From Candidatus Saccharimonadota bacterium (lineage in GTDB: Archaea > Nanohalarchaeota > Nanosalinia > Nanosalinales > Nanosalinaceae): DNA of 32,000 nt. The notes under the pieces were generated by a model. It was given only the letters and a program-made list of their open reading frames with translations. It ran no database searches and had not been told where the DNA came from. A program made the position numbers and the translations under genes. The stretch spans positions 210,001 to 242,000 of the forward strand of contig CP012986.1 in NCBI GenBank assembly GCA_001761425.1, given 5' to 3'. This document shows, piece by piece, positions 1-32,000 of this stretch (within the stretch, counting starts at the first letter, position 1; the number at the start of each line of letters is the position of its first letter).

Positions 1-1017
1 CTCGGAGAGGAGGGTTGCGACGACCCGTCTTTCTACTTCTCCGCCTGCGTCACCTCTCTTCGGTGCGATGGCATCGATCTCATCGATGAAGATGATAGCA
101 GGTTCTCCTTCACGGGCCTCATCGAACTTCTCTCTCAACTGTTTTTCAGACTCTCCATAGTACTTGGACATGATTTCAGGCCCGTCAATGGAGAGGAACT
201 GTGCATCCGCTTCATTAGCAACAGCCTTCGCCAGCAAAGTTTTACCGGTCCCCGGCGGACCCTGAAGTAAAACTCCAGAAGGTGCGTCAATACCAAGCTG
301 CTGGAAAACCTCAGGATGCTTCAGAGGAAGCTCGATCATCTCACGAACCTTCTGAACTTCCTCATCAAGGCCTCCAATATCCTCATAGGTAACTTCCGGA
401 ACCTGTACAGAGTCCTCTCCAGGCTCGGAAACAGCCTGTTCCCGGACCTTGATCTCAGTCTCCTGAGTGATCTTCACAGGGCCTGACGGATCTGTAGAAA
501 CAACAGCTAGCTTTGTCTCACCGAAGCTGAACCTGAAATTATCTCCCATACCGTCAAACATGTCATCAAACAGAGAACGAGCGTTATCCTTCCCGCTCTC
601 AGGGACAACAATATCTCCCTCAAGTACAGGCCTTCCTACAAGGCCTCTCTTGAAGATATTAGGGTCTTTTACCTGCATCATGACTCCTTCTTCTGCCGGG
701 GCAAGTGTGATCTGTTCAGCAGCCTTGAGGTCAACTTTCTCAACTTCTACATGCTCTCCCAGGGATGTGCCTGCGTTTTTACGCATGTAGCCGTCCATCC
801 TTGCGATTCCAAGGCCTTTATCCGCAGGATAGCTCCTGGCTACACGGCCTACTGTTTCTCTACTGCCTTCTAGGCTTACTGCATCTCCCTCTCTTACCTG
901 GAGTTTTTCCATGATTTTGCTGTCAATTCTAACTATGCCTTTGCCAACATCCTGCTGAGCGTTTGGAGGAACTTCTCCAACCCTCAACCGTTTGGAACTG
1001 TCTTCTTCATCTGTCAT
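1..1017 (-). CDS. cdc48: CDC48/VCP-type AAA+ ATPase, N-terminal part (gene runs off the left edge)
   Basis: My own minus-strand translation from the ATG at 1017-1015 gives [51 protein letters not shown]..., a CDC48-like N-domain. It is followed by Walker [22 protein letters not shown] and Walker B region [14 protein letters not shown]. The frame stays open to position 1. It is absent from the ORF track because it is open at the edge. Confidence 0.9.
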
Positions 1018-1354
1018 CTTGTTCTTCACCTGGATAAATTTCGTCTAGTATGTCTTTTTCATCGATAACGACCTTGAATCGGTGGAAAGAAACTTTCTCT
1101 CCCCACTCGTTGAAATAAGATACAACTTCGTCGGCAGCCTCTTTTGCAACGATGAAGACACTGTCATCAATCCTGAGGTGAGGTATCTCATCCATCAATC
1201 CATCTTTCTCGTATTCGTAGTGCTTCCCGTTACGTTTGACGGTCTGCGTGTAGCCGAAAAGGCCTCTGTAGAACTTGTTCCGCTCGTAGACGGATTCGAA
1301 GTTCTCCTTCTTCGTTCTGTAGGTCAGAAGGGCCGCAGCCGATTCCCTGGTCAT
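1007..1354 (-). CDS. hypothetical protein (115 aa), overlaps the cdc48 start by 11 nt
   Basis: ORF-track entry. The composition is acidic like its neighbours. Its stop (1007-1009) overlaps the cdc48 ATG (1015-1017), which suggests co-transcription or coupling. I recognise no family. Confidence 0.55.
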
Positions 1355-1515
1355 ATGGTCACAGGTTATCTCTGAAACTTTATAACTTTTTTATTCATGT
1401 CAGTAAAAAATTCAAATGCTCGAAAACGTGTTGACAGTTCCTGGAGGCGCTGATAAAATCGCTTCTGGTAAACGCTGCCAAGTAGGATATAAGGTTTTCA
1501 CGATAAAATTTCCAT

Positions 1516-2205
1516 GTGGAGGTAGAAAGGCTTTCGACTTCTTGTGAGTCGATCGATGAGCTTCTCAGAGGAGGAGTAGAGAAAGGTATAATCACAAACG
1601 TCTACGGAGAATCCGGTTCAGGTAAGACCAATTTCGCTATCCAGCTCGCCGCGCAGGTAACGAGCGAAGGCCACAAAGTAGCATATGTGGATACAGAGGC
1701 AGGTTTCTCCCCTGAAAGATTTCTGCAGATTGCTGACGAAAAAGCACTGGATAACCTGATGATAAAGGAACCGTACGACTTTGAGGAACAGACAGAAGTC
1801 ATCTCATCGCTTGAAAATTTTGTCGAAGAGGAAAACATCGAACTTGTGATAGTGGACTCCGCAGTCTCACTATACAGGTTGAAGGTCAACGGCGACAACG
1901 CATCCGAGATCAACAACGAACTCTCACAGCAGTTCTCAGATCTCTCAAACATCGCCCGCAAACACAGCATCCCGGTCATCGTCACCAACCAGGTATACAC
2001 AAGCTTCGACGAGGAAGGCCTTGAACTCGTAGGCAGAGACGTACCAAAATACTGGTCTAAATGCCTCATCAAACTATCCAACAAGGACAAAAATGTCAGG
2101 AAGCTTGAAATCTCCAAACACCGCTCCATGCCTGAAGGCAGGAACACACGTTTCAAGATCACCAACCAAGGCCTTGAATCGGTCGACGAAGACGGCCTGT
2201 TCTAG
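1516..2205 (+). CDS. radB: DNA repair and recombination protein RadB (RecA/RadA paralog)
   Basis: 229 aa with a GTG start. The N-terminus LSTSCESIDELLRGGVEKGIITNVYGESGSGKTNFAIQLA has the RadB/RadA-type Walker A. The short length with no N-terminal HhH domain is typical of RadB. Confidence 0.85.
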   Translation: MEVERLSTSCESIDELLRGGVEKGIITNVYGESGSGKTNFAIQLAAQVTSEGHKVAYVDTEAGFSPERFLQIADEKALDNLMIKEPYDFEEQTEVISSLENFVEEENIELVIVDSAVSLYRLKVNGDNASEINNELSQQFSDLSNIARKHSIPVIVTNQVYTSFDEEGLELVGRDVPKYWSKCLIKLSNKDKNVRKLEISKHRSMPEGRNTRFKITNQGLESVDEDGLF

Positions 2206-2344: not shown

Positions 2345-3121
2345 TTGAAAGTAGCGCTTCTGGGGCCTGAAGGAACTTATACACATCAGGCAGCGGAAAA
2401 ATACTTTGAAGGCCTTGAACCAGAATTTTGTTCTACCATAAGAGAAGTATTCGAATCAGATACTGAAGCCAAACTTGTACCGATCGAAAACTCGCTGGGT
2501 GGAGGTGTTACAGATACTATAGATCTTTTGAGAGAAAAAGAAGAAAGGATCTCCGGCGAAGTAGTTTTACCGATCCAGCACGCCCTGATCTCAGATGAAG
2601 AAGATATTGAAGAAGTTGAAAAAGTGAAATCACATCCTCAGGCCCTAGCACAGTGCCGGGATATAATAGAAGAAAACAGCTGGGAAACAGAAGAAGCTAA
2701 CTCCACAGCTGAAGCCGTTGAAGATCTTGAAGATGGAGAAGCAGCTTTAGCTTCGGAGATAGCAGCGGAGATCAACGGAAAGAACATCCTGGGTAAATCT
2801 GTACAGGACAGGGACGTGAATGTTACCCGTTTCCTCGTGCTGAACGGAGAGCCAGAGATGCGAGAGAAGGCCTCAATTATCCTGGAGCCAGGAGAAGACC
2901 GGCCTGGCCTGCTTCACGCAATGCTTTCATGTTTCGCCGGACATGAGATCAACTTAAGCCACATCCAGTCAAGGCCTACCAAGGAAAAACTTGGAGAGTA
3001 CTACTTCTACGTCGAGGCCCAGGCCTCTGGAGAACAGCTTCAGAAAGCCATAACCGCCCTGGAAACGTATGGAGAGGTCCAGAACCTGGGAGAATACGCA
3101 GAGGCCGAGAGGCCTGAATAA
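2345..3121 (+). CDS. pheA: prephenate dehydratase with C-terminal ACT domain
   Basis: 258 aa. MKVALLGPEGTYTHQAAEKYF matches the PDT N-terminus, and the C-terminal ACT-like segment is ASIILEPGEDRPGLLHAMLSCFAGHEINLSHIQSRP. TTG start at 2345, preceded by the Shine-Dalgarno-like GGGAGGTG at 2331-2338. Confidence 0.9.
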   Translation: MKVALLGPEGTYTHQAAEKYFEGLEPEFCSTIREVFESDTEAKLVPIENSLGGGVTDTIDLLREKEERISGEVVLPIQHALISDEEDIEEVEKVKSHPQALAQCRDIIEENSWETEEANSTAEAVEDLEDGEAALASEIAAEINGKNILGKSVQDRDVNVTRFLVLNGEPEMREKASIILEPGEDRPGLLHAMLSCFAGHEINLSHIQSRPTKEKLGEYYFYVEAQASGEQLQKAITALETYGEVQNLGEYAEAERPE

Positions 3122-3133: not shown

Positions 3134-4242
3134 ATGAGAGAAAGAATCGAAAACATCAACCTGTCGATCAGGAAAATATCAGAAAAAGCCGCGAAAATAG
3201 ATGATATAGTCCGGTTTGACATCGGCCAGCCTTCGTTTGACACGCCTGAACACGTCAAAGAAGCTACAAAAGAAGGCCTGGAAGAGAAACAGGGCTATTC
3301 TCCTATGCTAGGCCTTGAAGAGATGAGAGAAGCCGTACTGAATGAGGAGAAACAGAAAAAAGGATTTGAAGGCCTTGACTTAGGCCTTGAAAACGTGATG
3401 GTTACTACAGGTGGTATGGGTGCTCTTTTCGCCATTTTTTCCGCGAGATTGGGTCGCGGGGATAAGGCCTTGTTCAATGATCCGTGCTGGGGGCCCTACA
3501 AGATGATTTCCGAGGTCAATGGAAATGAATGGGAGCAGGTTGAGTACTGGAACGATGATAGAGAGCTTAGGCCTGAGGCGAGGGAAAAAATCGCTGAAGC
3601 TGATATGATGGTTGTTAACACTCCTGGAAATCCGACAGGATACGTTTTGACAGAGGATCAGGCCAGAGAGATTGGTGAATGTGCCGGAGAGAATGATACT
3701 TTCTTGTCTCTGATGAGGTCTATCACAGACTGGTTTACGGGAAAAAACATTACTCGCCAGCAGTTCACGCAGATGATTCAGCTGTTATAGGCTCGGCTTC
3801 GAAAAATCATGCGATGACAGGATGGAGAGTAGGATGGATAATCGATGAACCGGAGAATATAGAAGAGTATGCGAAAGTTTCCCGTGCCTCTACGGCATGT
3901 CCTCCCAGGATCTCACAGTACGCAGCGATCGATGCCTTGAACAATGACTCACATGTTGAACAGATGAGAGAGACCTACGAGGAGAGAAGAGACCTGCTTG
4001 TCGAGCGTATGGATGATCTTGACTGGGATTTTGTCGCTCCTGAAGGCGCAATCTATGCGTTCCCGGAAGTTGGGCAGGACTCGTGGGATTTCTGCATGAA
4101 AATGATAGACAAAGGCGTAGCGATGGTCCCGGGCGAGCCGATGGGCCCCGAAAGTGATGAAAAAGTCCGTATCTGCTTTGGATCGACTACAAAAAAAGAG
4201 ATAGAAAAGGCCTTCGACACTCTGGAAAAGGAGTTGAACTAG
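3134..4242 (+). pseudogene. class I (aspartate/aromatic-type) PLP aminotransferase, split by a 1-nt frameshift near 3697-3706
   Basis: ORFs 3134..3790 and 3814..4242 are two halves of one aminotransferase. Frame 1 is open from 3697 and reads FLVSDEVYHRLVYGKKHYSPAVHADDSAVIGSASKNHAMTGWRVGW, with the PLP-lysine motif SASK..AMTGWR. This continues naturally from ...VVNTPGNPTGYVLTEDQAREIGECAGENDTF in the upstream frame. One extra base in the T-run at 3700-3702 would restore a 369-aa protein. SD-like AGGTGA lies upstream of the ATG at 3134. Confidence 0.8.
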
Positions 4243-4289: not shown

Positions 4290-5144
4290 ATGATAGGTCA
4301 GAAAATTGTTATTTTAGGTGGTACAGGCCAGTTCGGCCAGCATCTCGGCGAAAAGCTTCAGGAGGAGAATGATATCTTTATCTCCGGCTCCAGTATTGAT
4401 AGAGCGAAGGAAGTTGCTGAGAGATACGGATGGAAGTACGGAGAAGGCACAGAGATAGTCAAAAATGCGGATATCGTGATAGTGGCTGTACCGATCTCAG
4501 TTACTGAAGATGTCATACACGAGGTAGGGCCTCACGTACCGGATGATGCCCTTTTCACAGATATTACAAGCGTGAAGCAGATGCCGGTAGAGGCCATGAG
4601 CGAGTACTCCGAAGAAGTTCTCGGAATGCATCCGATGTACGCCCCGAGCAACTCGATCAGAGGACAAAAGATTGTCATGTGTCCGGAAAAAGGCAAAAAA
4701 TGGACAGTAATGGAAGAGTTCTGGGAAAGACACGGCGGAGACCTGCACTTCACAGAGCCAGAGACTCATGACAGGGCAATGAGCCTGGTGCAGGGCCTCA
4801 TGCATTTCTCTGAACTTGTTGTGGCGGATGTCATCAGGAAATCGGAGCTCTCCGGTGACGAAATGGAGGAATTTTCCTCTCCGGTCTACCAGCTGATAAC
4901 AGATCTGACCGCAAGAATGTTAAACCAGAAGCCAGGCCTGTACGGCTCTATACAGGCTGAAAACCCGGAAAACGAAAACGTGAGAGAAAGATTCATTGAA
5001 TCAGCGGAAGATATCAGAGAGATAATCGGAGACGAGGAGGCCTTTGCCGAAAAGTTCGACGATCTTGGAGAAGAATTTGACCTTGAAGGCGCCCAGGACA
5101 GGACTGACATGGTGATAGAGTTTCTTTCGAAAGAGGTCCGCTGA
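4290..5144 (+). CDS. tyrA: prephenate dehydrogenase
   Basis: 284 aa. N-terminal Rossmann motif KIVILGGTGQFGQHLG, then GMHPMYAP and later segments typical of the TyrA family. It sits directly after pheA and the aminotransferase. Confidence 0.8.
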   Translation: MIGQKIVILGGTGQFGQHLGEKLQEENDIFISGSSIDRAKEVAERYGWKYGEGTEIVKNADIVIVAVPISVTEDVIHEVGPHVPDDALFTDITSVKQMPVEAMSEYSEEVLGMHPMYAPSNSIRGQKIVMCPEKGKKWTVMEEFWERHGGDLHFTEPETHDRAMSLVQGLMHFSELVVADVIRKSELSGDEMEEFSSPVYQLITDLTARMLNQKPGLYGSIQAENPENENVRERFIESAEDIREIIGDEEAFAEKFDDLGEEFDLEGAQDRTDMVIEFLSKEVR

Positions 5145-5153: not shown

Positions 5154-5492
5154 ATTTAAACAGAGGCCTCACTTTTTCCACTATGCGTCCACAGACACAG
5201 TCGAAGGGTGAACGTTTTGTGCCCGGCCGACTCGGTCAGCGAACGGTACATCGAGAAAGTCCTGGGATTCGAAAGGGTGGACGCGTTCTACAACAGGTCT
5301 AATCCTATCTCGGTTTCTACTGGATTTTTTGCCTCAATCACTGATCTAGAATTTGTGGCAGTGCATGTGCTGGTGCTGTAAAAAGCATCTTCTACAATTT
5401 TCGGTGTTCTATCTCTATGAAACTACAGAACTACACCGCAACGGTACGCTGCACGCGCAGAAAATCTTCAGAAAGGCCTTCCGGAGGTGAAA
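5154..5492 (+). repeat. non-coding segment A, paralogous to segment B (7988-8368)
   Basis: Colinear shared blocks are ATTTAAACAGAGGCCT (5154-5169), AAGGGTGAACGTTTTGT (5204-5220), GAAAGTCC (5255-5262), a second AAGGGTGGACG (5273-5283), CAGTGCAT (5359-5366), ACAGAACTACACCG (5425-5438) and GGAGGTGAAA (5483-5492). No acidic ORF is present. Confidence 0.45.
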
Positions 5493-5897
5493 GCTATCAG
5501 TAGAGAAGGCTACTCCAAGAGCTTCGAGTTCGACAGTCCAGAGTACTTCGAACAGCAGGAAGGTTTCGAGGAGATCGGCGAAAACGTCTACAAGGCGGAG
5601 ACGAGAGGAGAATCAGCTATTATTATCTATGACAAGGCCTCGGATATTATAGATGTCGTCGGCAATTTCAAAGCGGTTAGAGGTGTACAGTGGAACCATC
5701 GACAGGAGTTCAGTGCCAATGCTGACTTCAACAACGGAGTTAGCGAACATTACCGCCCTGGAAGGCCTATCGAGAGTGAAGCTGTAAAAGAGGCTCTGGA
5801 AGAATTCGGTGTTGAAACGGAAGGTCTTGAACCGGAGCAGAAGCCGAGAGTCATTGCTGATGGAGGGGAAGCTGCTGGTCACAGGCCTCAAACTTGA
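5487..5897 (+). CDS. hypothetical small acidic protein (136 aa)
   Basis: ORF-track entry with an acidic composition consistent with the local proteome. GTG is the first possible start after the in-frame stop at 5418-5420. It is followed by a hairpin and a T-run. A short segment (EGFEEIGENVYKAETRG) resembles the ORF at 8437-8649 (EAYEEIEETFYGERG). Confidence 0.55.
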   Translation: MKAISREGYSKSFEFDSPEYFEQQEGFEEIGENVYKAETRGESAIIIYDKASDIIDVVGNFKAVRGVQWNHRQEFSANADFNNGVSEHYRPGRPIESEAVKEALEEFGVETEGLEPEQKPRVIADGGEAAGHRPQT

Positions 5898-5914
5898 GGC
5901 CTCTACTTTTTTTT
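5883..5914 (+). terminator. hairpin plus T8 tract between convergent ORF136 and topA
   Basis: AGGCCTCA (5883-5890), loop AACT, TGAGGCCT (5895-5902) form a perfect 8-bp stem built from two AGGCCT copies. T8 follows at 5907-5914. The ORF136 stop TGA (5895-5897) lies inside the stem. Confidence 0.5.
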
Positions 5915-7964
5915 ACCAGTCGTCTTTGGTTGGGCAGTCCGGGTCTATGCACATTTTGTAATTGGAGCTTTTCTCTCTGTAGACCTGTATCTTCGGTGTG
6001 TTGCATTCATCACATGTCTCGTCGGTTTTTGAGATGTCGCCGTTGTTCGGCAGTGGGAAGCTGTTTTCACAGTCTGGATAGTTGGAACAGCCGACGAAAC
6101 GGGAGCCGCTGGACTTGATCATTCGCAGAGTTCCGTCCTCACATTGGTCGCAGGGTCCTAGCTGTCGTTTCCTCTTTCTTTCCTGGTCGATGGTGTCGAC
6201 GAGTTCCCGGCCGATCTCTTTTTCTTTCTCCTTGAACTTTGAGAGGGTCTCGGTTAGCTCTTCCTTTGCTTCCTCTATTACCTCTTCTCTACTGTTTTTT
6301 TCCTCGCGGATGGCCTCCATCTTCTCCTCGAACTCTCTTGTAAGCTCCTCGGAGACAACTGCAGGGCTGTGATCCTCCAGGGTCTCTACAATAGCAAGGC
6401 CTAGATCTGTGACCTCTATAGGATCTCCCTCGATATACTCTCTGTCGTAAAGTCTGTCAACAATCTGTGCTCTTGTGGCCTTTGTACCGAGTTCTCTTTT
6501 CTCAAGCTCGTTAACAATGGAGCTCTGTGAGTATCTTCTGGGAGGTTTTGTCTCTTTATCTGCTAGTTCAAACTCCTCGATATCGAGGACTTCTCCTTCC
6601 TCTACTCCTGGCAGTTCCGCTTCTTCAACGTTCACATACGGGTCATAGAGGTTGAACCAGTTTCTCTCCTTCGTGATCTTGGACTTTGCATTGAACTCGT
6701 AACCTCTCACATCCAGAGTCAAAGTCAGTGACTGCCTCTTCGCTGCATCTCCAAAGACGGCAAGGAAACGTTTTACAATTAAATCATAGACCTTTCTCTC
6801 CTTCTTTGACAAGCTTCCAGGCGATTCGCCTGTAGGATAGATCGCAGGATGCGCATCATCCTCTTTCTTACCCTGCCGTGGATAGATATCGTCCTTATCC
6901 AAGACTTTCTGAGCAAGGCCTTCGTACTCTTCCTGACCTTTCAGCTTCTTCAGCAGATTACTGTATCCAAGCTTCTTAGGAAGTTTCTGGGACTCTGTTC
7001 TCGGATAAGAGATAAGACCGTTCTCGTAGAGAGTCTGGGCGATCGACTGCGTCGTTTTAGGGTTGATGTTGAACTGGCTGGAAGCCTCGGATTGAAGGCC
7101 TGTCAGGTTGAAAGGGATCGGAGGATTATGCTTGTAATTATTAACTTTGATATTCGAGACTTCCGCTTCATCCTCATCTTGAACCTGGTCAAAAATTCCT
7201 TCTGCGATCTCTTCCTCCCAGATCCGGTCATTCTTCTCATGATCAGCTTCCGGATCCTGGAACTTTGCCCTGAACTCGCTGTGGTGTAAAAAAATCTCCC
7301 AGTAAGGATCAGGCTCGAACTCTATTATGCTTCTTTCCTTATCCGCAAGCATCTTCAGCGAAGGTCCCTGTACACGACCCGTAGAAAGGGTTTTATACCG
7401 GTCATTTTCCCGGACTGCCTGCATTAGGGCGCGTGAAACATTTACACCGTAGTAAAAGTCCAGTACATGTCTTGTAAGGCCTGCCTCGGTCATCCCTTTG
7501 TCAAAATCTTCTAGGTCGTCGAAGGCCTCGTTCAGGTCGTCCGGTGTGAGCGTGGAGAATTTCATCCTCTTTATTCTTCCTTCATCGGCGTTCGCCAGCT
7601 GTTTGATGACGTTAGCGCCGATCACTGATCCTTCAAGGTCGAAGTCGCATGCGTTGATGTACTCGTCTGCTTTATCCAGCTGATCTCTCAAGTTGTTGTA
7701 GTATTTCTTTACATAGTCCGCGCCGTCCTCATTCTCAAAGATCGGCTCCCACTGGACTTCAAAAACAGGGTAGTCCCAGCCCTCCTCATGTTCCTCAAGA
7801 TTGAATATATGGCCGACAGCAGGCGCTATAATAATCTTCTTACCGTTCTTCTCCAGCACATAGTTTTTAACGCCACGATTCTCTTCGACAGAATAGTTCC
7901 CAAGCGCCTGGGCGATCCTACTGGCTACTTTCGGCTTCTCCCCAACCATCACTGCTGTCTGCAT
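5913..7964 (-). CDS. topA: DNA topoisomerase, type IA (archaeal TopA / topo III-like) with C-terminal zinc ribbons
   Basis: 683 aa. Toprim N-terminus MVGEKPKVASRIAQALG and the active-site region ISYPRTESQ. Two C-terminal Cys4 modules are present (CDQCEDG...CSNYPDC and CDECN...CIDPDC). Confidence 0.92.
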   Translation of the reverse strand: MQTAVMVGEKPKVASRIAQALGNYSVEENRGVKNYVLEKNGKKIIIAPAVGHIFNLEEHEEGWDYPVFEVQWEPIFENEDGADYVKKYYNNLRDQLDKADEYINACDFDLEGSVIGANVIKQLANADEGRIKRMKFSTLTPDDLNEAFDDLEDFDKGMTEAGLTRHVLDFYYGVNVSRALMQAVRENDRYKTLSTGRVQGPSLKMLADKERSIIEFEPDPYWEIFLHHSEFRAKFQDPEADHEKNDRIWEEEIAEGIFDQVQDEDEAEVSNIKVNNYKHNPPIPFNLTGLQSEASSQFNINPKTTQSIAQTLYENGLISYPRTESQKLPKKLGYSNLLKKLKGQEEYEGLAQKVLDKDDIYPRQGKKEDDAHPAIYPTGESPGSLSKKERKVYDLIVKRFLAVFGDAAKRQSLTLTLDVRGYEFNAKSKITKERNWFNLYDPYVNVEEAELPGVEEGEVLDIEEFELADKETKPPRRYSQSSIVNELEKRELGTKATRAQIVDRLYDREYIEGDPIEVTDLGLAIVETLEDHSPAVVSEELTREFEEKMEAIREEKNSREEVIEEAKEELTETLSKFKEKEKEIGRELVDTIDQERKRKRQLGPCDQCEDGTLRMIKSSGSRFVGCSNYPDCENSFPLPNNGDISKTDETCDECNTPKIQVYREKSSNYKMCIDPDCPTKDDW

Positions 7965-7987
7965 ACATTAAACATAAGGCCTCACAG

Positions 7988-8649: not shown

Positions 8650-8685
8650 AAGGAAAGAAGGATGGGCCTTTACAGGCCTTTTGCT

Positions 8686-9991: not shown

Positions 9992-10258
9992 CAGGTTTTG
10001 AAATCCGAAACTCTGTGAGTTCCTGGTAGAAACATGGCAGAAGTCTCGGGTATACGAGGCTTTCATCGAACCTCTGAACGTTTAAAATGCGGTCGGTGAG
10101 AAAAGTCGGGAAATCGAAAATTTCCTTCGACTCCTGAAAGCTTCTCGCTTTCAGAGGGGTAGTCACCTTTCATTGGTAACGAGTAGTTCTTCAGCGAACC
10201 TTAAAAAATTGAGGCCTCCTACTGAAAGATTCGGAGAACTGCCTAGGATATCTTAAAG

Positions 10259-11305: not shown

Positions 11306-11344
11306 ATAAAAAAATAAGAAATAGAGAGGAAAAATGTAAGGCCT

Positions 11345-24314: not shown

Positions 24315-24360
24315 TTCTGATTACCTCGGTTTAGATAAAATATAGATTTAATCGAAGGCC

Positions 24361-25469: not shown

Positions 25470-26672
25470 CTATTTTCTTCCCAGAGTCTGTACTACTATG
25501 GTATCATTGTTTAATGCAGTCCAGCCTTCGCTGGTAGCTATCTGTCCATATCCGTAGAGTCCGAAAAGTTTCGTGTCTTCTCCCAAGGCCTTTCTGACGT
25601 TTTCTACTTCTCTGTTTGCTGTTTCTTTGTCATCGTATATTGCATAGCGTGCTGCGCAGCTGAATATTATTGCTGCCTCTATATCTTCTTTTTCAAGGCC
25701 TGTTTTTTTCCTTGCTTTTTTTGCTGCTTCTGTGGCTGCTTCGAGCATGGATGACTTCTCGCCCATCATAAGATTTACGTTTTCGTTTCTTTCAGGTGGA
25801 GGCAGGCATTTGTAGCATCCGTTTTCCTGTACGTCTATGGCCACTCTTAGTCTGTGTGTATCTTCTCTTTCGTTTTTCATTCCGAAGGGAGCCATTAAAA
25901 GAAATTCCGGGTTATCAGCTTGATCTTCTCCGAAGACCTGTGAGTAGACTTCTTTTGGAGTTTTACCGCTTAGTTCCTGTACCACATCGTTTTCGACTTC
26001 TGTTACATCGAAGTCATTTGGTGTTGGCTGAAATCCGTGTGCTCTATCTGAACCTACGCTTTTGCCAGTATTGACTATGATGCATGTGACTGCGTTCTGT
26101 TTCACCTTTCCTTCGTGGAATATTACCGTGTCCTGGAAATCGTATTCGTCCGAGGAGAACTCTCCTGTCGAAGAGAAACCTGGTCCGAGGAATGAGTTAA
26201 CGCCTTCAAGTATATTTTCTGCATTGCCTTTCGTAGGGTCTGCAAACGTATTTACAAATACTTCTCTGTGTTCTGCCCATTCACTCAGGCTTCCTTTAGA
26301 GTAGGGAATTATCTCATCGCTTTCAAGGTTTTTGAAGGCCTTTTCTACTGCTGATTTCCCTGCCTCTTTATCGTTTTCGTCCAGGCCTTTTCCCAGGCCT
26401 ATTCCGATATCTACTTCTGAGCCAGAGATTGTTCCAATTGCTACGCCGCCCTCAGTTATTTGTTCGTTGTTGATTTCTGCGGTGCTCGAACATCCGGTTA
26501 TAGGGACGTTGTCGAAAACCTCGTTTACTCCATCTAGGACCTGTTGGAGATCATACTTTGAGGATCCGAAGACATATACTATTTTCTCTCCGCCTTCTTC
26601 TGCTTGTTTAGCGGCTTTTTTACCTGCCTCAAATCCATCTTCTGCGCTAGAGTTCCCGGTTTGAACTTTCAA
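25470..26672 (-). CDS. FIST (FIST_N + FIST_C) domain sensory protein
   Basis: 400 aa. N-terminal pattern IVYVFGSSKYDLQQVL...PITGCSSTAEI and C-terminal pattern AAIIFSCAARYAIY...LFGLYGYGQIA match my recollection of the FIST_N and FIST_C signatures. Confidence 0.7.
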   Translation of the reverse strand: MKVQTGNSSAEDGFEAGKKAAKQAEEGGEKIVYVFGSSKYDLQQVLDGVNEVFDNVPITGCSSTAEINNEQITEGGVAIGTISGSEVDIGIGLGKGLDENDKEAGKSAVEKAFKNLESDEIIPYSKGSLSEWAEHREVFVNTFADPTKGNAENILEGVNSFLGPGFSSTGEFSSDEYDFQDTVIFHEGKVKQNAVTCIIVNTGKSVGSDRAHGFQPTPNDFDVTEVENDVVQELSGKTPKEVYSQVFGEDQADNPEFLLMAPFGMKNEREDTHRLRVAIDVQENGCYKCLPPPERNENVNLMMGEKSSMLEAATEAAKKARKKTGLEKEDIEAAIIFSCAARYAIYDDKETANREVENVRKALGEDTKLFGLYGYGQIATSEGWTALNNDTIVVQTLGRK

Positions 26673-26766: not shown

Positions 26767-27879
26767 CTAGATGAACTCTACACCGAGTTCCTGCTCGATC
26801 TCGTCCTCGTACTCGTCCTGATGCGTGTTGTCAGGTCCGTAGATCTGAGGGGAATCAACTCCTGTAACGATGATCATGGCCTGGAGACTGGAATCCATGT
26901 CCTCTCTGACCTGTGCTCCCCAGATGATCTTCGCAGATTCTGAGAGCTTTCCGGAAACAGTATTGACAACTTCCTGTGCCTCATTCAGTGAAAGGCCTGT
27001 GCCTCCTGTGACGTTGACAAGTGCGCCTTTACCGCCTTCAATCTCCACATCAAGAAGCGGGTTGCTTAAGGCCTTCTGTACGGCCTCTGTTGCTCTGGAG
27101 TCTGTGTCGGACTGTCCCATTCCGATCATGGCAATTCCTCCTTCGCCCATGACTGCGCGGATGTCCGCAAAGTCCAGGTTTACAAGGCCTGGCTTTGTGA
27201 CAAGTTCTGTTACTCCTTTGACTGCGTTTACGAGGATTTCGTCTGCGATCTTGAACGCTGTGTTCAGCGATACGTCTGGTACGATCTCTAGAAGTTTGTC
27301 GTTTGGAATTACGATCAGTGTGTCGACGACTTCTTCGAGTCTTTCAAGTCCGTATTCTGCGTTTTCCTGACGTGCATGTCCTTCCATTTCGAATGGAAGT
27401 GTGACGATTCCGACTGTGAGCGCGCCCTGTTTTTTGGCCTGTTCCGCGATGACTGGTGCTGAACCTGTTCCTGTTCCTCCTCCGAGTCCGCAGGTGATGA
27501 AGACCATGTCAGATCCTTCGACGGACTGTTTGATCTTCTGCTGGCTTTCCTTGGCGGATTCCTCTCCGACCTTTGGATCTGCTCCAGCTCCAAGGCCTCC
27601 TGTTAATTCTTTGCCGATAAGAACTTTTTCATCGGCGTTAGCGTAGAGAAGGTCCTGTGCATCGGTGTTCATAGCGATAGTTTCGCATCCTTCGATACCG
27701 ACTTCGACAAGTCTAGAAATAGTATTGTTTCCGGCTCCTCCAGAACCGATAACCTTGATATCGGCCTTTCTCTGCTCTATAAGCTCCTCAAGCTCATCGT
27801 CAATATCATGATTTTTCTGCTTCGACTGCGGGACATCGCCAGAACCTCCTTGCCTGGCCTGTTGTATTTGATCTTCCAT
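26767..27879 (-). CDS. ftsZ: cell division GTPase FtsZ
   Basis: 370 aa. [17 protein letters not shown] plus the tubulin signature [16 protein letters not shown], and the T7 region NLDFADI. Confidence 0.95.
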
Positions 27880-27993
27880 CGGGCGACCACTCTTCTTATG
27901 TAATACAAGTAGTCACTAAGCTATATAAAAATGCCTAAAGTGCCGTTCCTCCAACTTATAAGGCCTGACAAAAAGAAAAACAGGAGGAAAAGT

Positions 27994-28653
27994 TTATTCC
28001 TCTTTCTCGCCGTCAACTACTTCAACTTCAAGGTCAGTGTACTCACTGATCTCCTCCGAAACCTCATCTAGAGCCTCCTGAGGCAGTTCATGGGAATGTC
28101 CATCATGGCTGTGGACTTTGTAGATCTTCGCTGTTCCATCCTCTATCTCGAAATCTCCGTGGCCTAGTCTGTACTCGAAGATTTTCTCAGCGACTTCTTC
28201 CTCATCCTCGACTGTGTCATCAATCTTCACCCAGTACTCAAGGTCTTTTCCAGACAATGGATGGTTGAAATCGATCCTGACACGTCCAGAACCTTTGGAA
28301 ATTACTTTCCCTCTTCTGTTCCCAATCATCAGTTCTTCGCCGACGCGGACCTGAACATCCTGACGCTTGAACTCTTTCTCAGGATAAGTCTCAATGTTGT
28401 CAGAATCACGGGAGCCATAGGCCTTCTCCGAAGGAACCTCGATCTCCTTCTCATCGCCTACTTCCATATCGTGAAGTGCTTCCTCAAGGCCTTCGATAAC
28501 GTATTCCTCGCCCAGAAGCACAGGGATAGGAGAATAGTTCCTTCCTTCCTGGTAAAGGCCTGAGTCTTTAGCTTTTTCCTCCTCTGTAGTATCAAACACG
28601 TTTCCGTCCTGCTTGCCAGTGTACCTGACAAGCACCATCTCACCGTTTTCCAT
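27994..28653 (-). CDS. FKBP-type peptidyl-prolyl cis-trans isomerase (SlyD-like)
   Basis: 219 aa. VLVRYTGKQDGNVFDTT...IPVLLGEEYVIEGLEEALHDMEVGDEKEIEVPSEKAYG, then an insert-in-flap region and NHPLSGKDLEYWVKI. Confidence 0.85.
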   Translation of the reverse strand: MENGEMVLVRYTGKQDGNVFDTTEEEKAKDSGLYQEGRNYSPIPVLLGEEYVIEGLEEALHDMEVGDEKEIEVPSEKAYGSRDSDNIETYPEKEFKRQDVQVRVGEELMIGNRRGKVISKGSGRVRIDFNHPLSGKDLEYWVKIDDTVEDEEEVAEKIFEYRLGHGDFEIEDGTAKIYKVHSHDGHSHELPQEALDEVSEEISEYTDLEVEVVDGEKEE

Positions 28654-28704
28654 AGTTAATTCACAGCAAGGAATTAGGTAACAAGTTATAACAAACGAAA
28701 GGCC

Positions 28705-29082
28705 TTACATCAGAAATCTCTCGATAGCTCTGTCCTCGAACTCCATGAATTTTGTGAAGAGGCCTATGTGATGGTCCAGAGTGACTAGGGAAGCGCCGGC
28801 GAAGCTGACGCCGAAATCGATCAGTGAAAAACTCCTGTACGGTAGAAAGGCCTGAACTGCTTCGATTCCCAGAGCTAGAAATCCGGCTGCCAGAATTGCC
28901 TCGAGATGGCCTTTCTTCGTGTCATGGAAGTTTACGAGAAGTGCTGAGGCCAGGACAAAGTAGGCTACGGCATGGGCTGGAAAACCTCCCGCGCTCACCG
29001 GACTGGACCTGGGGGAGATACTTCCGTAAGTTATCAGAGCTACTAGAAAGAGAAGGCCTAATCTGTTCAGGGTTTCTCTCAT
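28705..29082 (-). CDS. VanZ-like small membrane protein
   Basis: 125 aa with 4 hydrophobic segments. HAVAYFVLASAL... and GIEAVQAFLPYRSFSLIDFGVSFAGASL resemble the VanZ family pattern (E..Q...P.R..s..D). Confidence 0.6.
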   Translation of the reverse strand: MRETLNRLGLLFLVALITYGSISPRSSPVSAGGFPAHAVAYFVLASALLVNFHDTKKGHLEAILAAGFLALGIEAVQAFLPYRSFSLIDFGVSFAGASLVTLDHHIGLFTKFMEFEDRAIERFLM

Positions 29083-29137
29083 TTATCCCGGTTTTTTGAC
29101 TTGAGAGTTAAAAGAATTTTAACCCAATTTAAGGCCT

Positions 29138-29401: not shown

Positions 29402-29408
29402 ATTATTT

Positions 29409-30209
29409 TTACTGTAACTGTTTTTCAGGCCTCTCGACCAGTTTAACGCCTTTATCCGAGAGTTCTACTCTATCTGCTTCCTCGTAGGCAAAGGCCATAT
29501 TCTGAGGATAGCCCGAAAAAATCTTATCTCTGTACTCTGCGATCATCTTGGCATCTCTTTTCACCTGTTGGTTGTCTGCAAGCCGGTAGATATCATTCAG
29601 GCCTTTACTGTGTCTTTCAACGTAGCCAAGCCTCTCCAAGGTCTGAAGATGCTTTTCAAGATCGATCTCGACCTCGTATTCGTCAAGAGAAAACTGATCT
29701 TCCATAGCACGGGTGCTGTACTCTGTGATATTTGCGCCTCTAAGCCTTTCCTCTCCGTAGAGCGACATGACGGCACATAAAGCTCCCATATTTCTCCTGT
29801 AATCAACAGAACCCTGTGCCAGATCGTTTCTCTCCGGACCCTCCCATAATGGCCAGTCATCCGGAGCCTCAAACTTCATGTATTCACTCGAAGCAGCCAG
29901 GGCCTCCAGCGAACCATTAAACTCCTCATACATCAAATCCTTCATCTCAGAGGCCTGAAAAGCAAATTCGGGGTTCAGCTTCACTTCTACTGTCTCGTTC
30001 TGAAAGCTCTCGGTAGAAACTATGCCGGCATCACGGAGATAAGCCACTTCGTTCGAGATATCTTCATCCAGCTCTGCCTTGATCTCCCTCAGTTCGAGAC
30101 GGGGAGACCTGTCACTGTCCCGAAACTTGATCAACTCTTTTTGATCTCCTAGAGCAGCTACAACAGCACTCAAAGCACCGGTACGCAACTTTTTTTCACG
30201 TTTCTCCAT
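29409..30209 (-). CDS. hypothetical protein with two winged-helix-like segments (266 aa)
   Basis: ORF-track entry. LREIKAELDEDISNEVAYLRDAGIV and LQTLERLGYVERHSKGLNDIYRL look wHTH-like. Its ATG (30209-30207) directly abuts the leuS stop (30212-30210). Confidence 0.6.
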   Translation of the reverse strand: MEKREKKLRTGALSAVVAALGDQKELIKFRDSDRSPRLELREIKAELDEDISNEVAYLRDAGIVSTESFQNETVEVKLNPEFAFQASEMKDLMYEEFNGSLEALAASSEYMKFEAPDDWPLWEGPERNDLAQGSVDYRRNMGALCAVMSLYGEERLRGANITEYSTRAMEDQFSLDEYEVEIDLEKHLQTLERLGYVERHSKGLNDIYRLADNQQVKRDAKMIAEYRDKIFSGYPQNMAFAYEEADRVELSDKGVKLVERPEKQLQ

Positions 30210-32000
30210 CTATTTGACCACTATCGCAGGCCTGCCAGGCTGAGCACGAGAGGCCTTATCCTCATCCGAGCTCTCCTCGCTTTCGACAGCGACTTCAACA
30301 TCGAACTCATCCTCGAACCGTTCCTGGTTTAATTCGAGAGCCTCTTCCTCCAGGTCAAGGCCTGTGAAGTCTCTCCTGTAACTTCCAGGGTTTTCAACCG
30401 CGTTGACAACTTCGTCATTGATTTGCTGTGCGTACTCCTGGAGATCCCCGTCAAGAACTTTATCCATGACTTCTCCTACATCTTTCGTACCCTGAATCGC
30501 TTTAAGAATTTTCTCACCGGCTTTGTACTTCCAGTCTGAGGCCTTGATGATCTTCACCTTCTCAGGTTCTCCCTCGATCATGGCAACGATCTCACGGATG
30601 TCAGAGGAGACACGGTCGAAGTAGGCGTCGATCTCTTCGGCTTCTTCATCGATAAGATCTTCATCGACTTCAGGCCAGTCTTCTTCGAGCATGAAGGCCT
30701 CGTTGCCGATTCTATCCCAGAGCTCCTCGGTGATGTGAGGTGCATAGGGACTGAGAAGCTTCAGGAGTGTATTGATGCCGTGTGACAGGACTTTGTCTTT
30801 TCCTCCCTGCTGTTCGTACCAGTAGAGCTTACTTAACAGGCGGTCGACTTCGTCGATAGCAAGATTGAAGTCATAATTCTCTGTATCTTTCGTGACTTTC
30901 TCGATGGCTCTCTGAATCCTGGAGGCCATGATACGGTCGAAGAGTTCTGCATCCTCTAGAGAAGGCCTCTCATCTGTTAAGGCCTCTTCGTTTTCCTTTA
31001 CTATTCTTTCGACTCTCTCAAGCATTTCTTCGGCAGCTTCTACTCCTTCTTCGCTCCAGTCCAGTTCATTTGTAGGGCCTGAAGCTCTGAGGATGAAAAC
31101 TCTTGCCGTATCTGCTCCATGCTCCTCTACAAGCTCGGTTGGATCTACGACGTTGTGTTTGGACTTGGACATCTTCCTGACGTCGACTTCGACTTCTCTA
31201 CCGCATTTTTCACATATGTTTTCCTGTTCGACTTCTTCAGGGAAGATCCATCCGTGTTCAGGACAGTTGTACGCTGGATGGTTCACCATTCCGAGTGTCA
31301 GAAGTCTTTCGAACGGTTCGTCTTCTCCAAGCATGTCTTTGTCTCTGAGGAACTTTGTGAAAAAGCGTGCGTACAGTAGATGCATGACTGCATGTTCTAT
31401 GCCTCCGATGTACTGGTCGACGTTCATCCAGGAATTTGCGTCTTCGATATCGAACGGAGCTGTCTCAAGCTCTGGTGAGATGTATCTGAGGAAGTACCAG
31501 GAGCTTCCGATGAACGTATCCATGGTATCTGTCTCTTTTCTTGCGTCTCCGCCACATTCAGGGCATTCGACCTCCTTCCAGCTCTCGGACGTCTCAATAG
31601 GATTACCTGTCTCAGTAAACTCCACATCATCGGGAAGTTCGACAGGCAGATCTTCTTCAGGTACTTTGACTGTTCCACATTCATCGCAGTGGATCATAGG
31701 GATCGGCGTCCCCCAGTACCTCTGACGGGAGATCAGCCAGTCACGCAGCTGATAGTTCACATCGGCCTCTCCAAGGCCTTCATCATCTAGTTCTTCGATC
31801 ATCTTTTCGATAGCGTCCTCCTTTTTCAGGCCGTTTAACTCTCCAGAATTGATGTGTTTACCGTCGCCCTCGTATGCACCTTCCTCTTCATAGGAATGAT
31901 CTCCTGAAGGCCTAACTACTTCCTGAACTTCAATATCATGTTCCTGGGCGAACTCGAAGTCCCTCTGATCGTGAGCCGGGACCGCCATGATCGCTCCGGT
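30210..32000 (-). CDS. leuS: leucyl-tRNA synthetase, C-terminal ~596 codons (gene runs off the right edge)
   Basis: The frame is open to position 32000 (…TGAIMAVPAHDQRDFEFA…). KMSKSKHNVV is the class I KMSKS motif. Zn-binding Cys pairs are present (CDECG, CPECGG, CEKCG). Confidence 0.93.
   Translation of the reverse strand, partial: TGAIMAVPAHDQRDFEFAQEHDIEVQEVVRPSGDHSYEEEGAYEGDGKHINSGELNGLKKEDAIEKMIEELDDEGLGEADVNYQLRDWLISRQRYWGTPIPMIHCDECGTVKVPEEDLPVELPDDVEFTETGNPIETSESWKEVECPECGGDARKETDTMDTFIGSSWYFLRYISPELETAPFDIEDANSWMNVDQYIGGIEHAVMHLLYARFFTKFLRDKDMLGEDEPFERLLTLGMVNHPAYNCPEHGWIFPEEVEQENICEKCGREVEVDVRKMSKSKHNVVDPTELVEEHGADTARVFILRASGPTNELDWSEEGVEAAEEMLERVERIVKENEEALTDERPSLEDAELFDRIMASRIQRAIEKVTKDTENYDFNLAIDEVDRLLSKLYWYEQQGGKDKVLSHGINTLLKLLSPYAPHITEELWDRIGNEAFMLEEDWPEVDEDLIDEEAEEIDAYFDRVSSDIREIVAMIEGEPEKVKIIKASDWKYKAGEKILKAIQGTKDVGEVMDKVLDGDLQEYAQQINDEVVNAVENPGSYRRDFTGLDLEEEALELNQERFEDEFDVEVAVESEESSDEDKASRAQPGRPAIVVK

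Follow-up and report, generated by a model that had tools for sequence, protein, structure and literature searches.

Cyanobacterial genomes were found three decades ago to carry hyperabundant palindromes, the function of which is unsolved. In this work, we describe a hyperabundant palindrome, the hexanucleotide AGGCCT, in a 32,000-nucleotide (nt) stretch of the genome of Nanohaloarchaea archaeon SG9 (Ca. Nanopetramus, DPANN; Atacama halite); the whole stretch is called the window below. The closest described cases are HIP1 (GCGATCGC) and the cyanobacterial palindromes GGCGCC, GCSGC and RCCGGY, which are likewise short bare palindromes found tens of times over expectation (Elhai 2015, PMC4390886). 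The likeness to HIP1, suggested speculatively in a preliminary description of this DNA that was made from the sequence alone, stands up in several respects: both words are bare palindromes that occur in all frames and in spacers, are lineage-specific and are kept at orthologous positions, and for HIP1 the function is unsolved and a link to a cognate DNA methyltransferase is suspected. Other hyperabundant palindromes of cyanobacteria track cognate methyltransferases (PMC4390886); a role as a dense self or strand mark has been proposed for HIP1 and its CGATCG methyltransferase and is unproven. AGGCCT differs from HIP1 in its six nucleotides with GGCC, not GATC or CGATCG, so that it is a member of the highly iterated palindrome (HIP) class and not HIP1, and in its host, a DPANN archaeon with a 1.1-Mb genome. 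It is also denser, with ~4000 copies per Mb compared to 300-2700 per Mb for the octamer HIP1, and a count above the HIP1 range has been noted only for the degenerate hexamer RCCGGY (PMC4390886).

Other described systems share some of these properties. The DNA uptake sequences (DUS) of Neisseriaceae and the uptake signal sequences (USS) of Pasteurellaceae are over-represented genome-wide (~1 per kb) through a drive at the level of fixation, occur in all frames with an effect on peptides, are enriched just downstream of genes and are common within a family; unlike AGGCCT, they are 9-12 nt long, non-palindromic and tied to a known competence receptor. The CCWGG excess of enterobacteria (Dcm/Vsr) and the ScmA/VsrA case of Caulobacter (PMC12907096) are palindromic methyltransferase targets, the frequency of which is shaped by dedicated repair; the Dcm/Vsr effect is small and limited to the methylated C, whereas for AGGCCT the flanks and the transversion neighbours are driven and no mutation-level protection is seen. 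Archaeal solitary methyltransferases (CTAG, N4-methylcytosine, in Halobacteria and GATC in several orders; PMC10609329) and Dam of E. coli (GATC) place a clade-wide mark with a presumed housekeeping role on a short palindrome. The targets of these enzymes are not enriched, whereas the SG9 genome is adapted to AGGCCT, which at 1 per 250 bp is as dense as a 4-bp site. CTAG is rare in haloarchaea. The methyltransferase M.MthTI (GGCC) and the T:G glycosylase Mig.MthI on the Methanothermobacter plasmid pFV1 represent archaeal GGCC-type cytosine methylation coupled to dedicated mismatch repair; this system differs from AGGCCT in being a plasmid-borne restriction-modification accessory for which genome-wide enrichment of the site is unreported. 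For a type II restriction target of the StuI or HaeIII type avoidance is expected, whereas AGGCCT is strongly enriched, the opposite of restriction-site avoidance, as had been pointed out initially. Enrichment of AGGCCT is unreported in the SG9 genome paper, which is silent on palindromes and methylation, in the HIP survey (PMC4390886), in the archaeal restriction-modification survey, in the nanohaloarchaeal methylome study and in full-text searches for AGGCCT, in agreement with the earlier statement that no function of this word has been described in archaea.

The window lies on the 1,125,078-bp contig Ga0136257_100001 and is also present on the Logan assembly of SRR2630167; its alanyl-tRNA synthetase (AlaRS) is identical to AQV86_01390 of SG9. 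The genes are archaeal housekeeping genes (cdc48, a radB-like gene, pheA, tyrA, topA, serS, tyrS, rtcA and alaS, the genes of ribosomal proteins L10, L1 and L11, and spt5, secE, ftsZ and leuS), and no tRNA or Rfam genes were found in the window. An exact search returned 128 copies of AGGCCT (4.0 per kb), which ranks the word first among all hexamers of the window, followed by TTCTTC with 78 copies. The expected numbers are 7.0, 8.0 and 24.9 for Markov models of order 0, 1 and 2, respectively; orders 3 and 4 come near the observed count only because their sub-words consist of the motif. Dinucleotide-preserving shuffles (n = 100) contained 7.72 +/- 2.61 copies, with a maximum of 14. In the 34 coding sequences (CDS), 106 copies were observed, compared to 18.0 +/- 3.8 (maximum 32) in synonymous-codon shuffles within each CDS (n = 1000) and 9.1 in codon-order shuffles. 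The excess of AGGCCT is ~16-fold over chance. An excess of more than 10-fold over composition and low-order Markov nulls is characteristic of highly iterated palindromes, as is the occurrence of a bare palindrome in all phases and in spacers with no conserved flanks, and both are seen here. The preliminary description had estimated about 125-130 copies and a more than 10-fold excess, which the exact count against 7-8 expected copies (orders 0 and 1) bears out, and had argued against a codon or dipeptide artefact, in line with the codon shuffles and the use of all three phases. The positions cited there are right to within 1 nt, and the phases assigned in pheA and the aminotransferase gene are all correct.

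It was also correctly noted that AGGCCT occurs both in genes and in spacers. With the small open reading frames (ORFs) of the JGI annotation included, 110 copies (86%) lie within genes, namely 18 as AGG-CCT, 37 as xAG-GCC-Txx and 55 as xxA-GGC-CTx; the other copies overlap a stop codon by its last base (4) or are intergenic (14). The tetramer GGCC occurs 211 times in the window, and 61% of these occurrences are inside AGGCCT (about two thirds by the first estimate). The flanks show A at -1 in 46% and T at +1 in 46% of the copies, and nothing is conserved beyond these two positions. The extended form AAGGCCTT accounts for 27 copies, or 21% (estimated at about one fifth); this share is what the two flank preferences yield when they are multiplied as independent, which leaves no room for a genuine octamer, and AAGGCCTT as the unit was rejected. 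The preference for A at -1 arises largely because Glu codons precede Gly: the commonest encoded context is E-G-L, with 20/54 phase-2 copies in a separate count. All copies are listed below; the strand given is that of the gene (phase 0, AGG-CCT; phase 1, xAG-GCC-Txx; phase 2, xxA-GGC-CTx; the encoded residues follow).

368..373, cdc48 1-1029 (minus), phase 2, GGL
628..633, cdc48 (minus), phase 0, RP
641..646, cdc48 (minus), phase 2, RGL
812..817, cdc48 (minus), phase 2, KGL
1260..1265, ORF 1007-1354 (minus), phase 2, RGL
2016..2021, radB-like 1516-2205 (plus), phase 2, EGL
2169..2174, radB-like (plus), phase 2, QGL
2410..2415, pheA 2345-3121 (plus), phase 2, EGL
2868..2873, pheA (plus), phase 1, KAS
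2972..2977, pheA (plus), phase 0, RP
3021..3026, pheA (plus), phase 1, QAS
3110..3115, pheA (plus), phase 0, RP
3274..3279, aminotransferase N-part 3134-3790 (plus), phase 2, EGL
3310..3315, aminotransferase N-part (plus), phase 2, LGL
3370..3375, aminotransferase N-part (plus), phase 2, EGL
3382..3387, aminotransferase N-part (plus), phase 2, LGL
3465..3470, aminotransferase N-part (plus), phase 1, KAL
3569..3574, aminotransferase N-part (plus), phase 0, RP
4208..4213, aminotransferase C-part 3814-4242 (plus), phase 1, KAF
4934..4939, tyrA 4290-5144 (plus), phase 2, PGL
5038..5043, tyrA (plus), phase 1, EAF
5164..5169, intergenic, 20 nt past tyrA stop
5474..5479, intergenic, 8 nt ahead of start of ORF 5487-5897 (plus)
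5635..5640, ORF 5487-5897 (plus), phase 1, KAS
5763..5768, ORF 5487-5897 (plus), phase 0, RP
5883..5888, ORF 5487-5897 (plus), phase 0, RP
5897..5902, shares last stop base (TGA-GGCCT) of ORF 5487-5897 (plus), 15-nt convergent spacer
6397..6402, topA 5913-7964 (minus), phase 2, LGL
6916..6921, topA (minus), phase 2, EGL
7096..7101, topA (minus), phase 2, TGL
7477..7482, topA (minus), phase 2, AGL
7523..7528, topA (minus), phase 1, EAF
7977..7982, intergenic, topA start 13 nt downstream
7998..8003, intergenic
8047..8052, intergenic
8549..8554, small ORF 8437-8649 (plus), phase 1, EAY
8674..8679, intergenic, 7 nt past serS stop
8935..8940, serS 8686-9957 (minus), phase 0, RP
9017..9022, serS (minus), phase 2, LGL
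9429..9434, serS (minus), phase 1, QAL
9701..9706, serS (minus), phase 2, EGL
10212..10217, intergenic
10412..10417, small ORF 10280-10486 (plus), phase 0, RP
10626..10631, ORF 10490-10885 (minus), phase 2, EGL
11050..11055, ogt-like 10931-11305 (minus), phase 1, QAC
11083..11088, ogt-like (minus), phase 1, EAL
11259..11264, ogt-like (minus), phase 2, EGL
11339..11344, intergenic, adjoins tyrS stop (TAA-AGGCCT on the gene strand)
11514..11519, tyrS 11345-12370 (minus), phase 2, EGL
12623..12628, tRNA-editing gene 12579-13091 (minus), phase 1, EAL
12867..12872, tRNA-editing gene (minus), phase 0, RP
12982..12987, tRNA-editing gene (minus), phase 2, EGL
13169..13174, ORF 13116-14183 (minus), phase 1, EAY
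13212..13217, ORF 13116-14183 (minus), phase 0, RP
13270..13275, ORF 13116-14183 (minus), phase 2, QGL
13702..13707, ORF 13116-14183 (minus), phase 2, EGL
13872..13877, ORF 13116-14183 (minus), phase 0, RP
14155..14160, ORF 13116-14183 (minus), phase 2, PGL
14307..14312, intergenic, adjoins rtcA start codon (AGGCCT-ATG)
14554..14559, rtcA 14313-15314 (plus), phase 1, EAL
14929..14934, rtcA (plus), phase 1, EAL
15022..15027, rtcA (plus), phase 1, KAS
15136..15141, rtcA (plus), phase 1, EAC
15314..15319, shares last rtcA stop base (TGA-GGCCT), 11-nt convergent spacer
15660..15665, hsp20 15326-15760 (minus), phase 2, RGL
16096..16101, small ORF 16039-16251 (plus), phase 0, RP
16236..16241, small ORF 16039-16251 (plus), phase 2, IGL
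16401..16406, ORF 16258-16653 (minus), phase 1, EAW
16570..16575, ORF 16258-16653 (minus), phase 0, RP
16667..16672, intergenic, divergent spacer
16774..16779, ORF 16739-17257 (plus), phase 2, VGL
17265..17270, alaS 17254-20028 (minus), phase 1, KAF
17385..17390, alaS (minus), phase 1, EAS
17496..17501, alaS (minus), phase 1, EAF
17940..17945, alaS (minus), phase 1, EAC
18098..18103, alaS (minus), phase 2, EGL
18548..18553, alaS (minus), phase 2, EGL
19016..19021, alaS (minus), phase 2, AGL
19027..19032, alaS (minus), phase 0, RP
19175..19180, alaS (minus), phase 2, TGL
19785..19790, alaS (minus), phase 1, EAW
20018..20023, alaS (minus), phase 2, KGL
20094..20099, intergenic, adjoins stop of ORF 20100-20846 (minus) (TAA-AGGCCT on the gene strand)
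20461..20466, ORF 20100-20846 (minus), phase 2, GGL
20584..20589, ORF 20100-20846 (minus), phase 2, TGL
20809..20814, ORF 20100-20846 (minus), phase 2, KGL
20937..20942, intergenic, 3 nt past stop of acidic ribosomal protein gene 20945-21253 (minus)
20961..20966, acidic ribosomal protein gene 20945-21253 (minus), phase 2, EGL
21355..21360, ORF 21323-22042 (plus), phase 2, EGL
21552..21557, ORF 21323-22042 (plus), phase 1, EAL
21639..21644, ORF 21323-22042 (plus), phase 1, EAS
22008..22013, ORF 21323-22042 (plus), phase 1, EAS
22300..22305, rpl10 22086-23138 (minus), phase 2, EGL
22360..22365, rpl10 (minus), phase 2, EGL
22702..22707, rpl10 (minus), phase 2, RGL
22979..22984, rpl10 (minus), phase 1, KAF
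23393..23398, rpl1 23191-23817 (minus), phase 2, EGL
24356..24361, shares last stop base of spt5 24361-24795 (minus)
25586..25591, FIST-domain gene 25470-26672 (minus), phase 1, KAL
25696..25701, FIST gene (minus), phase 2, TGL
26336..26341, FIST gene (minus), phase 1, KAF
26383..26388, FIST gene (minus), phase 2, KGL
26395..26400, FIST gene (minus), phase 2, IGL
26993..26998, ftsZ 26767-27879 (minus), phase 2, TGL
27069..27074, ftsZ (minus), phase 1, KAL
27185..27190, ftsZ (minus), phase 2, PGL
27593..27598, ftsZ (minus), phase 2, GGL
27961..27966, intergenic, ftsZ/fkbp spacer
28419..28424, fkbp 27994-28653 (minus), phase 1, KAY
28487..28492, fkbp (minus), phase 2, EGL
28556..28561, fkbp (minus), phase 2, SGL
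28700..28705, shares last stop base of ORF 28705-29082 (minus)
28760..28765, ORF 28705-29082 (minus), phase 2, IGL
28848..28853, ORF 28705-29082 (minus), phase 1, QAF
29054..29059, ORF 28705-29082 (minus), phase 2, LGL
29132..29137, intergenic, adjoins start codon of small ORF 29138-29401 (plus)
29427..29432, ORF 29409-30209 (minus), phase 0, RP
29599..29604, ORF 29409-30209 (minus), phase 2, KGL
29951..29956, ORF 29409-30209 (minus), phase 1, QAS
30228..30233, leuS 30210-31988 (minus), phase 0, RP
30251..30256, leuS (minus), phase 1, KAS
30358..30363, leuS (minus), phase 2, TGL
30539..30544, leuS (minus), phase 1, KAS
30695..30700, leuS (minus), phase 1, EAF
30963..30968, leuS (minus), phase 0, RP
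30980..30985, leuS (minus), phase 1, EAL
31774..31779, leuS (minus), phase 2, EGL
31908..31913, leuS (minus), phase 0, RP

The regions on both sides of the window are equally rich in the word, with 40 copies in 9.0 kb on the left and 36 in 8.2 kb on the right, so that the window and both flanks together contain 204 copies in 49.2 kb; extrapolation from these 49.2 kb would give ~4,500 copies per genome. The spacing of the copies is Poisson-like to slightly even: it fits an exponential distribution, and the coefficient of variation (CV) of the gaps is 0.87 (P = 0.023) in the 49 kb and not significant in the window alone. The longest gap in the window is 1230 nt, compared to a simulated mean of 1343 nt (P = 0.6); thus, the sparsity reported earlier for tyrS and for rpl1/rpl11/spt5/secE is within chance.

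To express how far the word has filled the positions open to it, we define an accessible site as a place where the protein permits AGGCCT by synonymous choice, i.e., R-P, [KQE]-A-[FLSYCW] or x-G-L, where x has an A-ending codon. In SG9, AGGCCT is present at 106 of the 140 accessible sites (76%); the occupancy is 65-85% in the other members of the clade defined below and 0-27% in the outgroups. Codon use depends strongly on this context: Gly before Leu is encoded by GGC in 82% of cases in context versus 27% elsewhere, and the corresponding figures are 89% versus 24% for AGG (Arg before Pro), 95% versus 39% for CCT (Pro after Arg) and 76% versus 23% for GCC (Ala in [KQE]-A-[FLSYCW]). The log odds ratios of this context-dependent codon use, computed by hand, are 2.4-3.4, which can serve as a rough measure of the scaled strength of the bias per site. 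The effect extends to the proteins: tripeptides compatible with AGGCCT number 15 per 1000 codons in the clade versus 6-7.6 in the outgroups (~2x), and where SG9 carries the word, K-P, E-E-L, E-D-L, E-N-L or E-G-I is frequent in the outgroups. AGGCCT is created and kept wherever other constraints permit.

Word variants were counted in one set of genes in the clade and in the outgroups. AGGCCT, in which GGCC has both of its proper flanks, occurs at 3.84 per kb in the clade versus 0.30 per kb in the outgroups, GGCC with one proper flank at 1.68 versus 0.83 per kb, and GGCC with neither flank at 0.64 versus 0.59 per kb; the flank variants GGGCCT and TGGCCT are 3-4 fold up in the clade. The clade/outgroup ratios of the one-off variants of the core are 0.44 for AGGACT, 0.51 for ACGCCT, 0.62 for AAGCCT, 0.83 for AGGTCT, 0.87 for ATGCCT and 0.96 for AGCCCT. 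Among them, the neighbours that derive from T:G mismatches (AGGTCT/AGACCT, 0.83; AAGCCT/AGGCTT, 0.62) are less depleted than the transversion neighbours AGGACT and ACGCCT. The favoured unit is the full hexamer, with the pressure on the A/T ends equal to that on the GGCC core. A separate observation concerns the most avoided hexamer of the window, CTCGAG (the XhoI site), with 1 copy versus 14 expected (order 2); SG9 has 4 copies in 49 kb, compared to 8 per 22 kb in L009 and L010 and 17 in L012 (the L numbers designate loci of relatives and other contigs). This avoidance hints at a species-level XhoI-type restriction system.

The word is maintained over deep time. The copies of SG9 are shared in place with L009, L010, L011 and L015 in 62-76% of cases, compared to a baseline hexamer identity of 23-33%. 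At residues conserved in both genomes, the fourfold sites of GGC/GCC/CCT are identical in 90-94% of cases inside the word versus 44-54% outside (Fisher p = 1e-7, 9e-8, 5e-5). The fraction of copies shared in place matches the occupancy of accessible sites; therefore, the force keeps acting per accessible site, and the pattern is not merely the result of common descent. The recent time scale is represented by three strain lineages of the SG9 species that are 98.0-98.6% identical over 12-20 kb. The numbers of single-nucleotide polymorphisms (SNPs) in word columns, observed versus expected from a codon-position-matched background, are 9/11.1, 5/5.6 and 8/4.5, and the young changes among strains that can be polarised comprise 8 losses and 1 gain (two-sided binomial P ~0.04, hand calculation). 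Word-breaking mutations arise at the background rate yet do not last; thus, the bias acts on fixation (selection or recombination-type drive) and not on mutation or repair. A bias at the level of fixation, a lower density in inserts (see below) and an enrichment at gene ends are properties of uptake sequences, and all three are observed.

The density of AGGCCT is 5.5-7.7 per kb in noncoding DNA versus 3.2-3.7 per kb in coding DNA and reaches 18-43 per kb in convergent 3'-3' spacers. In the enriched loci, 40-70% of the genes have AGGCCT starting within 30 nt past the stop codon, and in four of them the word begins on the last base of the stop codon or on the next one (position 0 or +1) in 20/94 genes, versus 0/29 in L012. 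The stop-linked forms of the window are T[AG]A-GGCCT (5897, 15314, 24356, 28700) and TAA-AGGCCT (11339, 20094). The association with stop codons could reflect relaxed constraint or a role at gene ends.

The distribution of AGGCCT across relatives was examined by counting the word in the DNA around relatives of the AlaRS gene, with the following results (identities are those of AlaRS to SG9 unless stated otherwise).

L009, 86%, 4.08 AGGCCT per kb
L010, 85%, 3.82 per kb
L011, 81%, 3.86 per kb
L013, 78%, 3.43 per kb
L014, 78%, 2.89 per kb
L015, 75%, 3.78 per kb
L139-L143, 98% nucleotide identity, 4.0-4.2 per kb
L012, 76%, 0.40 per kb
L016, 75%, 0.81 per kb
L001, 70%, 0.41 per kb
L003, 65%, 0.04 per kb
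Woesearchaeota and Micrarchaeota loci, 35-42%, 0.04-0.3 per kb

The enrichment is restricted to one clade with seven enriched lineages; the four outgroups (L012, L016, L003 and L001) are not enriched. The GC content of the enriched loci ranges from 43% to 51%; therefore, the trait is not tied to composition. The enriched assemblies are independent and come from different samples, which excludes an assembly or adapter artefact. A concatenation of 9 proteins (2,472 columns) groups L015 with SG9 (distance 0.18) and leaves L012 outside (0.34), with a quartet bootstrap of 1.0, and indicates as the simplest history one origin of the AGGCCT enrichment in the ancestor of a genus-to-family-level clade of Nanohaloarchaea, the SG9 lineage. 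A secondary loss in L012 and L016, suggested by the AlaRS neighbour-joining tree, was rejected by this concatenation. By AlaRS alone, L015 looks as distant as L012 (75-76%), and the tree nests L012 among the enriched lineages; since the nine concatenated proteins put L015 clearly with SG9, the AlaRS gene (17254-20028, minus strand) evolves unevenly or has been exchanged in the SG9 group.

Lineage-specific inserts contain AGGCCT at 1.1-1.7 per kb, below the density of the clade and well above chance, which is consistent with recent acquisition and ongoing adjustment. The inserts L010 3884-7926 (1.7 per kb) and L011 2044-3837 (1.1 per kb) interrupt conserved gene order; a GDPD protein of 756 aa is encoded in one of the two, and a Glug-repeat protein of 597 aa in the other. 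Outside the clade, two viral/plasmid-like contigs that are not obviously related to it were noticed to contain dispersed copies in excess of expectation: L020 1-3639 (IMGVR_UViG_3300029432_000018; 36% GC) has 13 copies in 3.6 kb, roughly 30-fold over composition, and L105 1-10794 has 22 copies in 10.8 kb. AGGCCT may be enriched in other hosts, too. A scan of viral contigs for triple words returned, among the matches listed, mostly chance occurrences or tandem repeats and none attributable to viruses of the SG9 clade.

Several genes of the window deserve mention in their own right. The class I/II aminotransferase gene is split into 3134-3790 and 3814-4242 (plus strand, different frames) in SG9, in the JGI assembly as well as in the Logan assembly of that sample. 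The 98%-identical L139, L141 and L142 have it as a single unbroken gene of 369 aa, so that the split is due either to a frameshift specific to the strain (a pseudogene) or to an error in the assembly. Between ftsZ and secE, SG9 alone has a gene for a FIST-domain protein of 400 aa and an ORF of 96 aa (25158-26672, minus strand); L009, L010, L012 and L015 have neither at that position. The FIST gene carries AGGCCT at 5/5 of its accessible sites. The leuS gene (30210-31988, minus strand) scores 489 bits with the leuS_bact model versus 194 bits with the archaeal model, and its product is thus classified by model score as a bacterial-type LeuRS, as in haloarchaea and Nanoarchaeota. A 115-aa protein with no family match (1007-1354, minus strand) overlaps the start of cdc48 and is identical on nine contigs from different samples. 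The 124-aa protein encoded at 10931-11305 (minus strand) corresponds to the DNA-binding domain of O6-methylguanine-DNA methyltransferase and to nothing else of that enzyme; it might be either an alkyltransferase-like protein or a small form of Ogt. Relatives differ in whether they have it and in how far it is truncated: its counterparts are 127 aa in L010, 110 aa in L015 and 74 aa in L012, and it is absent from L009.

A hexameric palindrome that is favoured as a whole is expected from a twofold-symmetric reader of double-stranded DNA, and AGGCCT is probably the target of a clade-specific symmetric DNA-reading protein. In the mechanism that we propose, AGGCCT would be the binding site of such a reader with a genome-wide job, and the fixation bias would follow from this; the best guess for the reader would be a solitary StuI-type (AGGCCT) DNA methyltransferase, which would set a dense self or strand mark, the word having become as dense (~1 per 250 bp) as a 4-bp site, e.g., GATC. 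Solitary methyltransferases that persist within a clade are frequent among archaea (PMC10609329), and the activity of nanohaloarchaeal methyltransferases suffices for methylation of host DNA (PMC11001535). The interpretation we lean to, tentatively and at a little short of an even chance, is that AGGCCT is a lineage-specific HIP1-like highly iterated palindrome read by a clade-specific symmetric DNA protein, with a methyltransferase as the best guess. Taken more broadly, AGGCCT might possibly be the recognition word of an undescribed archaeal genome-wide system, either a dense self-DNA mark or an uptake/recombination signal in a host-dependent DPANN archaeon that imports foreign DNA, and such a system would have the strength to reshape synonymous positions, and amino acids too, throughout the clade, an idea to which we give roughly one chance in three or slightly less.

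A number of observations weigh against the interpretation in terms of a methyltransferase-like reader. The reader protein is purely one that we infer, and no methyltransferase, Vsr, nuclease or other candidate reader was found in 49 kb of SG9 (the window and two flanks of 8-9 kb). The single-step losses of the word comprise 7 changes of the type C4>T/G3>A, 3 of C5>T/G2>A, 4 of T6>C/A1>G and 4 transversions, and no significant C-to-T hotspot is present among them. A hotspot of the 5-methylcytosine type was sought and is seen as a trend at C4 only, which is not significant; therefore, a strongly mutagenic 5-methylcytosine mark is not indicated, and N4-methylcytosine, no methylation at all, or a non-enzymatic binder is possible. 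The function of HIP1 is itself unsolved, so that "like HIP1" names a pattern and not a mechanism. The evidence for a spacing requirement is weak, given that the slight evenness reported above reaches significance in the 49 kb only, and lost AGGCCT sites are not replaced locally in a compensation test of low power. It should be noted that the statistics come from ~50 kb of one genome and from orthologous loci, and that strain-level counts are small.

Among the rival explanations, the main one, which we consider rather unlikely, is a molecular drive through biased uptake or recombination, of the kind behind the uptake sequences to which the preliminary description had also likened the word; here, a surface or import receptor would prefer own-species DNA with AGGCCT and recombination would spread the alleles that create the word, which would itself need no function in the cell. 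Import of DNA via SPEARE proteins has been suggested for Nanohaloarchaea (PMC6642349). The uptake drive predicts a fixation-level bias with no change in the mutation rate, as is seen, and it agrees with the favouring of all word positions, flanks included, with a word that is common to related species, used in all frames, reshapes peptides and is enriched just past genes, with the lower density of lineage-specific inserts and with a spacing slightly more even than random. Conversely, known uptake sequences are asymmetric cores of 9-12 nt, whereas AGGCCT is a 6-nt palindrome and AAGGCCTT occurs at the rate of independent flanks; a 6-bp word gives only ~16-fold discrimination, and the palindrome points to a symmetric dimeric reader, typical of restriction-modification enzymes. 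We know of no archaeal uptake signal or receptor. The repair drive raised in the preliminary description, in which cytosine methylation at AGGCCT or GGCC, together with either a Vsr-type endonuclease or a T:G glycosylase of the Mig type, would over-correct T:G to C:G at near-cognate sites, has precedents in the modest rise of CCWGG that such repair causes in E. coli and in the archaeal GGCC methyltransferase and T:G glycosylase of pFV1, and AGGTCT is the commonest state at lost sites (7/18 single-step losses). This explanation is improbable, because such repair acts only on the T:G mismatch of a methylated C and intercepts mutations, whereas the A and T flanks are driven as much as the core, which T:G-to-C:G repair cannot achieve, the transversion precursors are depleted more than the T:G-derived ones, the strain SNP density in the word equals the background, and a ~16-fold effect is far above known repair-driven cases.

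The abundance of AGGCCT past stop codons and in convergent spacers could also be explained by a gene-end or RNA-level signal, e.g., for the formation of transcript 3' ends, with the in-gene copies being secondary. We regard this as more doubtful still, since the great majority of the copies are inside genes and saturate accessible sites, a hexamer palindrome with no spacer cannot form a hairpin, an RNA signal needs no palindrome, and many genes have no copy at the end; moreover, stop codons provide the leading A or AA, so that fewer changes are needed there. A by-product of base composition or of codon or amino-acid usage in an acidic halophile proteome would fit the predominance of E-G-L, glutamate being abundant in halophile proteins; nevertheless, the codon shuffles, the Markov nulls, the higher density in noncoding DNA and the lack of enrichment in outgroups with the same genes and similar GC content rule it out for practical purposes. 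The same negligible probability applies to an origin of the copies as traces or cores of small mobile repeats of the MITE or REP type: the copies are many and dispersed, as such a repeat would require, but there is no conservation beyond -1/+1, and interspersed repeats were ruled out because the copies arise by substitution inside aligned codons, in frame in conserved genes and at orthologous positions, with no indels and no shared flanks.

If the interpretation of AGGCCT as a highly iterated palindrome or an uptake-type signal is true, it would be the first in Archaea. AGGCCT independently extends hyperabundant palindromes to a further domain of life, in a symbiont whose 1.1-Mb genome leaves only a short list of genes to screen, and the clean on/off contrast between sister lineages makes the search for the reader protein tractable. 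The comparative series, which comprises lineages with the enrichment, a sister lineage that lacks it and strains that are 98% identical, could identify this protein and may help to solve the HIP1 puzzle. The word also provides a simple binning marker for the clade in hypersaline metagenomes, by StuI/HaeIII digestion or k-mer counting. Codon-usage and selection analyses of genomes of this clade must account for AGGCCT, because a six-letter DNA word can measurably reshape a proteome, with certain tripeptides doubled.

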